Assembly (NCBI RefSeq): GCF_003334385.1
Contig: NZ_QOWN01000044.1
From: Escherichia coli
GTDB lineage: Bacteria > Pseudomonadota > Gammaproteobacteria > Enterobacterales > Enterobacteriaceae
Reading direction: 5' to 3' (one strand)
DNA: 37,124 nt
The position numbers and the translations under genes are program-made. A model generated the notes under the pieces. It did not search any database. It was not told the DNA's origin and saw only the letters and a program-made list of their open reading frames with translations. Below, piece by piece: positions 7,703 to 26,537 of this stretch (its first letter is position 1; each line of letters begins with the position of its first letter).

Positions 7703-7732
7703 CGGATGATTTGCAGTTTGGCAAATCATCCG
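7703..7732 (+). terminator. Perfect 12-bp stem-loop downstream of yciT (no U-tract)
   Basis: CGGATGATTTGC-agtttg-GCAAATCATCCG at 7703-7732, 17 nt after the yciT stop. Lacks a T-run, so it may be a Rho-dependent or RNA-stabilising structure rather than an intrinsic terminator. Confidence 0.4.
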
Positions 7733-8173: not shown

Positions 8174-8270
8174 TCGTAAATAAATGTCGATTATCGACTC
8201 GCAATTATAATACGCTTGATTCTGTTCAGTACGAAATAACTGAATAATACGCACAGTAAAATATTCGAAA

Positions 8271-8296
8271 GCCACGGATATATCCGTGGCTTTTTA
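8271..8296. terminator. Bidirectional intrinsic terminator between convergent osmB and yciH
   Basis: GCCACGGATA / TATCCGTGGC perfect palindrome followed by TTTTT on the plus strand and a T-rich run on the minus strand. Confidence 0.7.
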
Positions 8297-20870: not shown

Positions 20871-20902
20871 AAACGCGAGGTCTTAGCCTCGCGTTTGTCT
20901 TT
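20871..20902. terminator. Terminator hairpin between convergent yciN and sohB
   Basis: AACGCGAGG-tcttag-CCTCGCGTT followed by TGTCTTTT, immediately after the yciN stop. Confidence 0.6.
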
Positions 20903-23555: not shown

Positions 23556-24431
23556 TTAACCGTTATTATTACGTCCGCCAGAACGACGACCGCCGCTCAC
23601 CTGACTGTGACGTTTCACCGCACGACGAATCTGATTCGCCTTCATGCGACGACGGTCTTTTTCTACAGCGACTTTAGAGCTGGTTTCTGGCGGTAGCTCC
23701 ACCAGTTCGCGCAGATAGTTAGTCTGGGCGAGGTCCAGCTCCGTCCAGCCACCGCGTGGCAGACCTTTTGGCAGTGGGATATCACCGTAACGAACACGGA
23801 TCAGGCGGCTCACCTGCACACCAACCGCTTCCCACAGACGACGAACTTCACGGTTACGGCCTTCGGTCAGAGTCACGTTGTACCACTGGTTGATCCCTTC
23901 GCCGCCGCTGAACTTGATGGTTTTAAAAGCTGCCGGACCATCTTCCAACTGCACGCCACGACTCAAATCACGCAGTTTCGCGTCGTCAACCTGACCAAAT
24001 ACACGCACGGCATATTCACGTTCAACTTCACGGCTTGGGTGCATTAAACGGTTTGCCAGTTCACCATCGGTGGTGAACAGCAGCAGACCACAGGTATTAA
24101 CGTCCAAGCGACCCACGGCAATCCAGCGTGCGCCACGCAGTTTTGGCAGACGGTCAAACACCGTTGGACGTCCTTCCGGATCGTTACGGGTACACAACTC
24201 ACCTTCCGGTTTGTAATAGGCCAGAACGCGACAAATTTGTTCAGCGGACTCACGTACCGAAATCAGGTGACCATCGATACGGATTTTCAATCCAGGGGTA
24301 ACTTCAACACGATCGCCGAGTTTAGCAATTTTGCCATCAACACTCACACGACCGGCTTCAATAATAGATTCGATTTCACGGCGAGAACCGTGGCCGGCAC
24401 GCGCCAGCACTTTCTGTAGCTTTTCGCTCAT
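23556..24431 (-). CDS. rluB: 23S rRNA pseudouridine(2605) synthase RluB
   Basis: 291 aa; N-terminal S4 RNA-binding domain, RsuA/RluB-type catalytic domain, and an Arg/Gly-rich C-terminal tail. Confidence 0.93.
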
Positions 24432-24641
24432 AGAGCTTCCTTTTGGTGTCGCCTTCCCAGGCGTCTGATATGCTTTTGTGCAACAGTGAGTCAGAACTTA
24501 CATCTGACTCACTGATAGTAAAGTCTGTTTGAACTCTTCAGGCCTTAAGTAAACGACTCGACGTTTATCGGCCTGGCTTTGAGGCGCAACATACTACACT
24601 ATCTTTATGGTTAAAGCTTGTTTCGATTAACATCAGCTTAA

Positions 24642-26537
24642 TTACCAGCCACCACCGCCTCCGCCACCCGCGCCGCCGCCAGCACCACCACCGGAATAAC
24701 TTCGCCCCAACAAACTGGTATTGGCCCCGCAACTTAGGTGCGTCTGTAATGAGAATAAAACGCCGTTACGGGCAATCTCTGGAGCGCGAATCGCCGAAGA
24801 AAGCGAAGGGGCAATGCGTAACGCCCATTCCCTCCCCAAATTTGCCGATATAGCCCAACCTAGCAACGCGTAATCCAGTTTCCGTGTTTCCCCTTTCCGC
24901 CGACGTCCACTGTGTGTTGCTGCCTCTTTACGCGCAAGATAGTTAACGATAGCTTCACCGTGGGCATAACGTTGCTGTCCAGTTTGGGTAAACTTTGGCA
25001 GAAAAATATACCCCATGCCAGTGAGATAACCGGTCAGGCAAACAGCGGTAAAATAACCCGCTGGCATATACCAGTAAAAGAATACATCTCCGACATTGAT
25101 GTAGAGAGAATAGAAGGCCACGCCTGAACAAATCAGTGGTAAAAACAAAGTGATGATTACACGATTAACGCAAGGCTTGTCATCATCGCGGGCAAACAAA
25201 AGCTCAAGGGAACAAAATAAAAAAGGAATAATCCAGCAGATCATAATAAACATATCGCCCACCAGACTCATTCCTGCCCAGCCTACAGGACTCAAGTTAC
25301 CGTAAAGAATGACCGCCAATATTGCCAGTCCACCCCATTGCAAAAAAGTATCAGACCGGTAAAACGAAGACTTTTTACGCGGCAGATAAAATTTCTGCAT
25401 CCGTAAAAATGCCCTGCGTAAGACTCTGTTGCGTCTCCCCGTAAGAACGACCTTATCGCCTTTACGAAATAACGCTTCCAGTAATAACTGCTCTGCGGGC
25501 AGTAATACCGCATTATTTCTGGTCGCGCCTTCATTAACACGAATCAGGATTTGCTGGTTCTTGTCAGACTGATCTTCCAGATGAATTTTTCCTTTCACAA
25601 TCAGATTTACGATATCGGCACAAAAACCTTTATCGTCGTAAACTAGCTTCGCATCGAGACGTAACATGCCGGGCGTGTAATCTGGCGGAATGACATCGGT
25701 TTCAATCACATCTACCGGCGTAAATTGCGGCCTGCGCTTCCAGAGATATAACCATCCACAAACCAGGAACAGACACGGAAACCAAATTAACAACGATGAC
25801 GTGGAGGGTAAAAGAAGATGGCTGAAAATATTCGTCGTTTGCGGAGCCGAGGCATTGCTAAGTAAAGCGTGAGGCCAGCGGTAGAGGACCGTGAAATCTT
25901 CACGATAAAACGGATCGCGGGATTCAATTCTTCCGTCCTCAAGGATGCGGCCATTACGATATGTGTCGCCCTCTTCTCCGGTAAAGAGATCGATTTCGCT
26001 AAATGGATTACCCGCAATATTAGAGAACTGGAGAGAAAAACGGGTCTTATAAATTTCAAACGGCCAGTGGTTACCGGTCACGTTCCAGATTAGCAGATCA
26101 GAATCCCCCTCACGCAGGAAAGCATTTTTAACCTGATAATGAATTTGATAATGATAGTCGCCTTGAGGCAAGAAACGTTGTTTATCGCCCACGACAATAC
26201 TCATTAACCCGATATGCCAGTCAAGATGCCAGGGTTCAGGAATACCATCACGGGTGACGCCAACAATATGATAGTTCAGCAGTGCAGCGTCCCCATCAGG
26301 CTGCATCCATAGTCGTGGTAAATCACGATAAAAGCCGTGCTTAATCTGCTGATTTCGCGCCTGAAAATGAATATTTTCTTTGATGTCGAGCACCCCATCT
26401 GGTTGCAGAGTGGCTTCAACATCAAAGAGCGAGATCCCTTCTTCATAAGAAGGGATCTCCGTGTTTTCTGCATAACTTAGAGATGATACAAACAGCCCTG
26501 CTATCAACAGCAAAATGCAGCGAAACTTCCCTGCCAT
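24642..26537 (-). CDS. yciQ: DUF2207-family membrane protein YciQ
   Basis: 631 aa; N-terminal signal/transmembrane segment, several central transmembrane helices, and a Gly-rich C-terminal tail. Confidence 0.88.
   Translation of the reverse strand: MAGKFRCILLLIAGLFVSSLSYAENTEIPSYEEGISLFDVEATLQPDGVLDIKENIHFQARNQQIKHGFYRDLPRLWMQPDGDAALLNYHIVGVTRDGIPEPWHLDWHIGLMSIVVGDKQRFLPQGDYHYQIHYQVKNAFLREGDSDLLIWNVTGNHWPFEIYKTRFSLQFSNIAGNPFSEIDLFTGEEGDTYRNGRILEDGRIESRDPFYREDFTVLYRWPHALLSNASAPQTTNIFSHLLLPSTSSLLIWFPCLFLVCGWLYLWKRRPQFTPVDVIETDVIPPDYTPGMLRLDAKLVYDDKGFCADIVNLIVKGKIHLEDQSDKNQQILIRVNEGATRNNAVLLPAEQLLLEALFRKGDKVVLTGRRNRVLRRAFLRMQKFYLPRKKSSFYRSDTFLQWGGLAILAVILYGNLSPVGWAGMSLVGDMFIMICWIIPFLFCSLELLFARDDDKPCVNRVIITLFLPLICSGVAFYSLYINVGDVFFYWYMPAGYFTAVCLTGYLTGMGYIFLPKFTQTGQQRYAHGEAIVNYLARKEAATHSGRRRKGETRKLDYALLGWAISANLGREWALRIAPSLSSAIRAPEIARNGVLFSLQTHLSCGANTSLLGRSYSGGGAGGGAGGGGGGGW

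Follow-up and report, generated by a model that had tools for sequence, protein, structure and literature searches.

The stretch of DNA analysed here, hereafter the window, is 37,124 nucleotides long and comes from Escherichia coli (contig NZ_QOWN01000044.1 of assembly GCF_003334385.1). It carries yciQ and, downstream of it on the same minus strand, rluB, with a spacer of 210 nt between them. The genes and the features assigned to the spacer are the following.

23556–24431, minus strand: rluB, the gene for the 23S rRNA pseudouridine-2605 synthase, downstream of the hairpin.
24448–24465, minus strand: putative attachment-site (att) core, GACGCCUGGGAAGGCGAC, at −34 to −17 from the rluB ATG.
24466–24474, plus strand: putative extended −10 relic, TGATATGCT, facing the lost integrase gene, away from rluB.
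24466–24483, minus strand: tail between hairpin and att core, UUGCACAAAAGCAUAUCA; intact islands have the U-tract tail UUUUUGAAAGUAUACCA instead.
24477–24479, minus strand: an ACA triplet in this tail, at −48 to −46 from the rluB ATG, which fits the reported MazF cleavage at 49 nt.
24484–24514, minus strand: the palindrome, read in rluB-sense RNA as CAGUGAGUCAGA-UGUAAGU-UCUGACUCACUG, at −83 to −53 from the rluB ATG.
24515–24641, plus strand: decayed 5' end of a tyrosine integrase gene, read away from rluB and matching about the first 35 codons of intact island integrases.
24536–24570, minus strand: second, imperfect hairpin, GGCC...GGCC, with an inner AAACG/CGUUU stem.
24583–24596, minus strand: candidate rluB promoter, TAGTAT plus GTTGCGCC, a −10-like hexamer and a GC-rich segment about 160 nt upstream of the ATG.
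24642–26537, minus strand: yciQ, encoding a DUF2207 protein of 631 amino acids, directly after yciO and in place of ancestral spacer sequence of 67 nt.

A sister Escherichia lineage (L004) lacks the second hairpin, and B2-type E. coli have an indel in it. The yciQ gene varies in length among annotated E. coli alleles. Three tandem 15-nt units (GCCACCACCGCCTCC and variants, 24648–24692) encode the glycine-rich carboxy-terminal tail of YciQ, GGGAGGGAGGGGGGGW. Further into the coding region, at 26431–26459, lies a 13-bp perfect palindrome with a loop of 3 nt, GAGATCCCTTCTT-CAT-AAGAAGGGATCTC, which encodes EIPSYEEGIS; it is also found in an E. coli yciQ allele of 94% identity and is missing from the Klebsiella homologue. 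Further perfect inverted repeats of the window are located at 7703–7732 (12 bp), 8268–8293 (11 bp) and 20871–20896 (10 bp). The last two are flanked by A-tracts and T-tracts, resembling bidirectional terminators, and 20871–20896 matches the sequence given for a Term-seq 3' end at 1330384.

The palindrome of the spacer consists of twelve perfect pairs around a loop of 7 nt, with the arms CAGTGAGTCAGA at 24484–24495 and TCTGACTCACTG at 24503–24514 (plus-strand numbering). A previous sequence-only reading had placed a perfect inverted repeat of 10 bp downstream of yciQ, in the leader of rluB. The repeat does exist at this position, starting 127 nt past the yciQ stop codon on the minus strand, but its length is 12 bp rather than 10. 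In 100 dinucleotide-preserving shuffles of the window, perfect inverted repeats of at least 12 bp with loops of 3–10 nt never occurred, and those of at least 10 bp occurred at a mean of 0.17 per shuffle. The palindrome is far beyond chance. Its stem is very stable compared with shuffles (z = −5.6), the folding energy is nearly equal on the two strands (−20.1 versus −19.7 kcal/mol), and both the minimum free energy and the centroid fold of the spacer contain the hairpin. Taken over its full length, the spacer also folds unusually well (z = −4.6).

A perfect 12-bp stem of around −20 kcal/mol provides the G+C-containing stem-loop feature of an intrinsic terminator. No U-tract is found beside it on either strand; only two U residues follow the stem, the tail being UUGCACAAAAGC, and a terminator scan of 24300–24800 revealed no terminator-like site. 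Rfam covariance models gave no relevant match at E-values up to 10, neither for the window region nor for an intact island end, and no annotated feature, Rfam family or RNA 3' end is tied to the palindrome. A repeated element (REP, ERIC or MITE) is ruled out by its single-copy state, with a median of one place per E. coli genome.

Our query matched 4918 of 5426 complete E. coli genomes, in 3975 of them across the spacer. About a fifth of E. coli genomes are without yciQ and the palindrome: in around 940 of the 4918, only the rluB-proximal part matched (the last 86 nt before rluB and into the gene), and MB7671, the only one of these that was opened, has no yciQ but has yciO, a 100-nt spacer and rluB. 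Between yciO and rluB, none of 78 loci of other Enterobacterales species contained a yciQ homologue, and the palindrome was missing there as well. The closest yciQ outside E. coli, from the Klebsiella huaxiensis group, is only about 55% identical and likewise follows directly after yciO; the order there is yciO, yciQ, other insertions, an integrase relic with hairpin and U-tract, and rluB. In the yciQ-rluB gap of this Klebsiella locus (L091, 8120–8200), what we take to be an ERIC/IRU-like repeat lies beside an 87-amino acid reverse-strand reading frame and the integrase relic. Across species, the distance from yciO to the att core ranges from 51 nt to more than 3 kb and the intervening genes differ, as expected for an insertion hotspot. 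By this distribution, the yciO-rluB junction is a hotspot of predicted site-specific integration across Enterobacterales, and the palindrome is accessory DNA, not an ancestral element of rluB. The yciQ gene itself is accessory DNA left by an integrative element.

When genomes with and without yciQ are compared, homology resumes exactly at 24448–24465. This segment contains a small hairpin, with a 5-bp stem and a GNRA loop (CGCCU-GGGA-AGGCG, 24450–24463), that is nearly invariant across about 80 Enterobacterales loci, from Escherichia to Yersinia, Serratia, Erwinia and Pantoea. Its consensus is GACGCCTG(T/G)GAAGGCG, also GACGCCTG(T/G)GAAGGCGAC, which in RNA form reads GACGCCUG(U/G)GAAGGCGAC, and it contains the short inverted repeats GACGCC and GGCGAC. 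No Rfam family matched it. Mimicry of 23S rRNA helix 93, the substrate of RluB, was considered and retained as no more than a weak idea: a GUGA loop on a GC-rich stem is common to both, and 8 of 21 positions match without gaps.

In three E. coli genomes (H15, A17 and Z1323CEC0012), direct repeats of this core, 16–19 bp long, flank islands, which identifies the conserved leader hairpin as the attachment-site core. The islands of H15 (8.4 kb) and A17 (9 kb) lie between yciO and rluB with the integrase gene adjoining rluB; GACGCCTGTGAAGGCG is found at each flank, and the ancestral spacer is intact on the yciO side. In Z1323CEC0012, which has yciQ and a window-type spacer, a 13-kb island is located directly after the GACGCCTGGGAAGGCGAC of this relic, between it and rluB, and ends with an integrase gene, a second hairpin and a second copy of the 18 bp, followed by rluB. 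There, the new island directly follows the old relic, so that old and new hairpins stand in tandem. The same type of junction occurs in Kosakonia sacchari with a truncated integrase, and the empty site is represented by MB7671 and by many loci with a native spacer of about 100 nt. In several loci, the recombinase gene encodes 555 amino acids, reads away from rluB and has its ATG 68 nt from the core; the family belongs to Pfam Phage_integrase (PF00589) and to the PHROGs integrase family phrog_1. The window itself retains only the rluB-side junction, and no attP junction was found in viral contigs. Taken together, these junctions show a family of predicted tyrosine-integrase islands inserting site-specifically into the GNRA hairpin of the rluB leader. 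The palindrome was rejected as the recombination core, since it is the GNRA hairpin, at a distance of about 18 nt, that holds the direct repeats and the crossover.

The cargo of the E. coli islands (L089, 7580–16700; L088, 13390–21745; L090, 3298–16445) is varied. Encoded there are a RelA/SpoT-domain protein that matches PDC-S33, a candidate defence family, as well as a DUF4238 protein, YagK/YfjJ and a serine recombinase; L090 carries a helicase and a phage baseplate-like protein. In other genera, cargo at the rluB site comprises Hcp, an alpha/beta hydrolase or an MlrA-like regulator. The motif TGTGTGACAGCTT is present in both arms of L088 (13475–13487 and 21608–21620), the right-arm copy being inside the first integrase codons; these copies are candidate sites for arm-type binding of the integrase. 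The left arm of L089 contains AATCAATGAGTTA, an IHF-like site that agrees with what we take to be the IHF consensus.

The plus strand of the window from 24446 to 24660 was aligned with four island ends in the orientation of the integrase. Shared blocks are the core, the tail (GTCTGATATGCTTTT), both hairpin arms (ACTCACTGAT) and ACATACTACAC. The latter, at 24589–24599, is the best-kept block of the integrase gene, where intact integrases encode the second half of ...RGRTYYT..., and weaker similarity to the island integrase continues up to about codon 35. A tblastn comparison of the window relic with the integrase gave no significant protein match, the relic being too decayed at the protein level. 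Amino-terminal integrase stubs beside the core are also found in eight other lineages. As aligned, the whole 210-nt yciQ-rluB spacer is homologous to the integrase-proximal end of the putative islands, and the palindrome lies about 18 nt inside the integrase-side arm, away from the core. Its origin as a fossil of an island arm is well supported.

Most of some 25 island and relic lineages have a hairpin homologous to the palindrome that ends about 18 nt 5' of the core and, in the islands, lies between the core and the integrase start codon. The U-tract TTTTTGAAAGTATACCA mostly comes after the stem; one of these hairpins (L037) passes a terminator consensus scan. A similar hairpin, equally far from the core, is present in native yciO-rluB spacers. 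When the ten basal pairs of 20 stems were aligned by hand, 89.5% of cells were paired versus 80.4% in shuffles, and changes on both sides occur in seven of the ten pairs, a result equalled in none of 500 shuffles and not approached by any slid register. Since this alignment was fitted by hand to the stems and its sequences are related, its statistics lean towards structure, and the covariation figures are supportive rather than decisive. On the rluB-sense strand, G-U pairs are frequent in the stems. For 24 of the 25 hairpins, the folding energy is lower for rluB-sense than for antisense RNA; the difference averages 5.6 kcal/mol, of which base composition accounts for 2.3. Compensated pairing, the strand bias of the G-U pairs and a loop varying between 4 and 22 nt agree well with an RNA hairpin that is read towards rluB, and poorly with a protein site of fixed spacing or with integrase mRNA.

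The stem of the window differs from those of the island ends, having 12 perfect pairs, a loop of 7 nt and about −20 kcal/mol versus around 10 imperfect pairs and roughly −10 kcal/mol, and it is followed by TTGCACAAAAGC in place of the island U-tract. By these comparisons, the palindrome descends from a terminator-like RNA hairpin whose U-tract has since been lost. In the sister lineage L004, the flanks are otherwise near-identical to the window, and the arms are CAGTGGGGCAGG and TCTGCCCCACTG; relative to the window arms, two pairs have changed with full compensation and one is G-U. Common E. coli variants comprise a change in the loop and a C-to-T change that turns the third pair from G-C into G-U on the sense strand; this last allele is found in B2-type E. 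coli, in NC101 and TUM11352, and in 19 of 66 metagenome copies. One metagenome contig of low coverage has an A-C mismatch at the loop-closing pair. Among the 66 metagenome copies, three of the 31 hairpin nucleotides vary versus one of 29 flanking nucleotides, variation within E. coli being too low to show constraint.

The sequence-only reading had offered an RNA element or a DNA site for a dimeric regulator as possibilities, and had proposed the conservation of stem pairing as a check. Pairing is indeed held by compensatory changes among island ends and relics, and these, like the G-U changes, are workable only on the rluB-sense strand, which favours the RNA-level reading. The regulator proposal found no support: the range of loop lengths leaves no fixed spacing of half-sites, and half-site sequence has altered between E. 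coli and L004 with pairing kept.

In published Term-seq tables, the only rluB 3' end is at 1327761(+); none is given for 1326769–1326810, where the K-12 hairpin occupies 1326769–1326799 (NC_000913.3), and none anywhere between the two genes. Entries with Rho (bicyclomycin) sensitivity near the locus fall within yciQ and antisense to rluB, and none of them coincides with the hairpin (PMC7815308). The hairpin is therefore not an effective terminator in K-12. Together with the missing U-tract, this bears out the earlier view that the repeat is not a typical intrinsic terminator, and it makes it probable that yciQ and rluB are co-transcribed, at least partly. Table 1 of a study on the MazF regulon lists polysome-associated rluB mRNA cleaved at an ACA 49 nt from the start (PMC5001579). 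The only ACA near this distance is the one in the tail, about 5 nt 3' of the stem, so rluB mRNA reaches at least the foot of the hairpin, to within 4 nt of the stem. We infer that the hairpin itself is within rluB RNA, the MazF data showing only mRNA beyond −49.

Upstream of the hairpin, a TAnnnT motif followed by (G/A)(T/C)GCGSCC recurs in about 20 ends of islands or relics as well as in 23 native yciO-rluB spacers. It is also present in relics with no detectable integrase, and L004 keeps TAnnnT, as TATGAT, where the window has TAGTAT. In native spacers, the form is TATACTACGCGGCC (for example L001, 2951–2964), while the island-end form, TAGTATGTGCGCCC, is antisense of the integrase codons for RTYYT. 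A reading of GTGTAGTATG as simply a conserved promoter was set aside, as it is antisense of integrase codons, and then partly reinstated because the motif persists in integrase-less relics and native spacers. TAGTAT-GTTGCGCC is a candidate rluB promoter with a GC-rich discriminator, which would place the hairpin in a 5' untranslated region of about 155 nt; a simple sigma-70 scan called no promoter on the rluB strand of the spacer, 24583–24596 included. On the other strand, the counterpart of TGATATGCT in island ends is TGGTATACT, and the extended −10 (TGn plus TAnnnT) is kept in most of them, in the window and in L004. This element is probably the integrase promoter, and an antisense transcript from TGATATGCT could still be made in E. 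coli.

The explanation we lean towards, with modest confidence, is that an old integrative island decayed in place and that the palindrome, the stem-loop of its integrase-proximal arm, is now a non-terminating RNA hairpin. In live islands, rightward transcripts would undergo intrinsic termination or attenuation at the hairpin and its U-tract, shortly ahead of the att core; these transcripts would arise from an outward promoter-like motif overlapping the first integrase codons. In the window, integrase and U-tract would have been lost and the stem would remain, transcribed in the rluB leader or in yciQ-rluB intercistronic RNA and no longer terminating. The stable hairpin of about −20 kcal/mol would persist with a present effect that is modest at most, or none; it might hinder exonucleases, or serve as a domain boundary that sets yciQ apart from the rluB leader.

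A more elaborate proposal, which we think rather unlikely, is that the islands install a two-way control module upstream of rluB, with an outward promoter antisense in the integrase codons whose RNA either terminates or reads through. The promoter would be TAGTAT with its GC-rich segment, and RNA ending at the hairpin and U-tract would be a cis-antisense RNA of about 110 nt over the integrase start codon. Read-through would restore expression of rluB, cut off from its own promoter by the insertion. The window hairpin would then be what remains of the switch, locked in read-through once the integrase was gone, and the invariant GNRA hairpin would be a regulatory element in the leader of rluB that has not been described before.

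The palindrome may also be leftover island DNA with no present function, its perfection and compensated pairs arising from templated (quasi-palindrome) replication mutation, a reading that is tentative and clearly less likely than a decayed arm that still forms an RNA hairpin. Compensatory changes in a DNA palindrome can come from template switching, with no need for selection on RNA, and imperfect palindromes of E. coli are known to mutate by this route, which counts for a neutral fossil. So do its location in accessory DNA missing from about a fifth of E. coli and from other genera, intraspecific variation with no clear excess of constraint, and the lack of any associated 3' end, Rfam family or annotated feature. 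Against it, the stem grew from about 10 imperfect to 12 perfect pairs while the neighbouring integrase sequence decayed heavily, G-U substitutions stay uncorrected in a major lineage and always favour one strand, and hairpins are kept in several independent relics that have lost the integrase. The strand bias also bears on the idea that the TGATATGCT promoter fires and the hairpin is the 5'-terminal structure of an antisense RNA, running from about 24482 into the 3' end of yciQ. The retained extended −10 and the nearly equal energies of the perfect palindrome on both strands speak for such an RNA; we nevertheless judge it improbable, given that the antisense fold is systematically weaker in homologues, that it loses 4.3 kcal/mol against the sense fold in the B2 allele, that the data consulted (Term-seq tables) contain no antisense start or 3' end at the site, and that the promoter is known only from its sequence.

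A perfect 12-7-12 dyad is operator-shaped, and the arms of the islands resemble WATCAANNNNTTR: TATCAGTGAGTTA and AAACAACGAGTTA are each one position off what we take to be the IHF consensus, and the other island arm has a similar single motif, AATCAATGAGTTA. The palindrome could thus be the operator of a dimeric host regulator, or a leftover site of an island protein or IHF. Yet the spacing of the arms varies from 4 to 22 nt among homologues, the window arms moved off the IHF-like motif (TTA to TCA) while gaining pairing, three arm positions changed in L004 with the partner arm compensating, and no gene for a cognate regulator is adjacent, all of which makes a protein-binding site very unlikely. 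We give the smallest chance to a terminator or attenuator still working between yciQ and rluB, either with the help of a factor or with no need of a U-tract. The homologues have the appearance of intrinsic terminators and the stem is very stable, but only two U residues follow it, no Term-seq 3' end lies between the two genes, the Rho-sensitive entries are not at the hairpin, and MazF-processed rluB mRNA from downstream of the stem is found on polysomes.

Read as the remains of an island arm, an unannotated and very stable palindrome in a much-studied region of K-12 finds an explanation as a molecular fossil and not as an ancestral regulatory site. The by-products of the analysis outrank the palindrome in interest: the hotspot, the attB hairpin in the leader, the fossil spacer in K-12 and a possible promoter inside integrase codons. 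Two elements of the rluB leader are seemingly uncatalogued, namely the invariant GNRA attachment hairpin and the conserved −10-like motif with its GC-rich segment, and the cargo of the hotspot includes candidate phage-defence genes. If the island end supplies a replacement promoter and an attenuator, an element that severs a gene would compensate for its own damage, in parallel to tRNA-targeting islands, which rebuild the tRNA 3' end.

Among known systems, the island ends are most readily compared with att arms of the lambda or P4 type. In both, a tyrosine recombinase gene adjoins the core, direct repeats of the target (here 16–19 bp) flank the element, the core has short inverted repeats, the arms contain IHF-like motifs and a repeated motif (here GTGTGACAG), and decay leaves an integrase stub. 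The target is different: instead of a tRNA or tmRNA gene, the predicted islands use a hairpin, small and conserved, within the 5' leader of a protein gene. The palindrome also differs from an att core in being a hairpin about 18 nt inside the arm. In the library searched, literature on yciQ and rluB, the rluB leader and islands at rluB contained no description of the element or the hotspot. A relic of an att arm is a known kind of object, but its target, the small hairpin in the rluB leader, was not found described there.

As stem-loops followed by UUUUU on the rluB-sense strand upstream of a coding region, the homologues resemble intrinsic terminators and leader attenuators, whereas the copy in the window has neither U-tract nor mapped 3' end, and no antiterminator structure was identified. 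A stable stem-loop with no U-tract between co-oriented genes is also reminiscent of REP and BIME elements, by analogy with which it could plausibly form a barrier to 3' exonucleases. It differs from them in being single-copy in each genome, in having no Rfam match and in having a different, traceable origin, and we presume that it bears no resemblance to REP sequences. The sib element of phage lambda, which is located 3' of int and acts via RNase III on the int transcript, offers a further comparison. The window-type hairpin, unlike sib, is 5' of int, is best formed antisense to int and is terminator-like. By analogy with sib retroregulation, it is a hairpin near att on RNA that would overlap the integrase region, so that the state of integration could alter which transcripts carry it.
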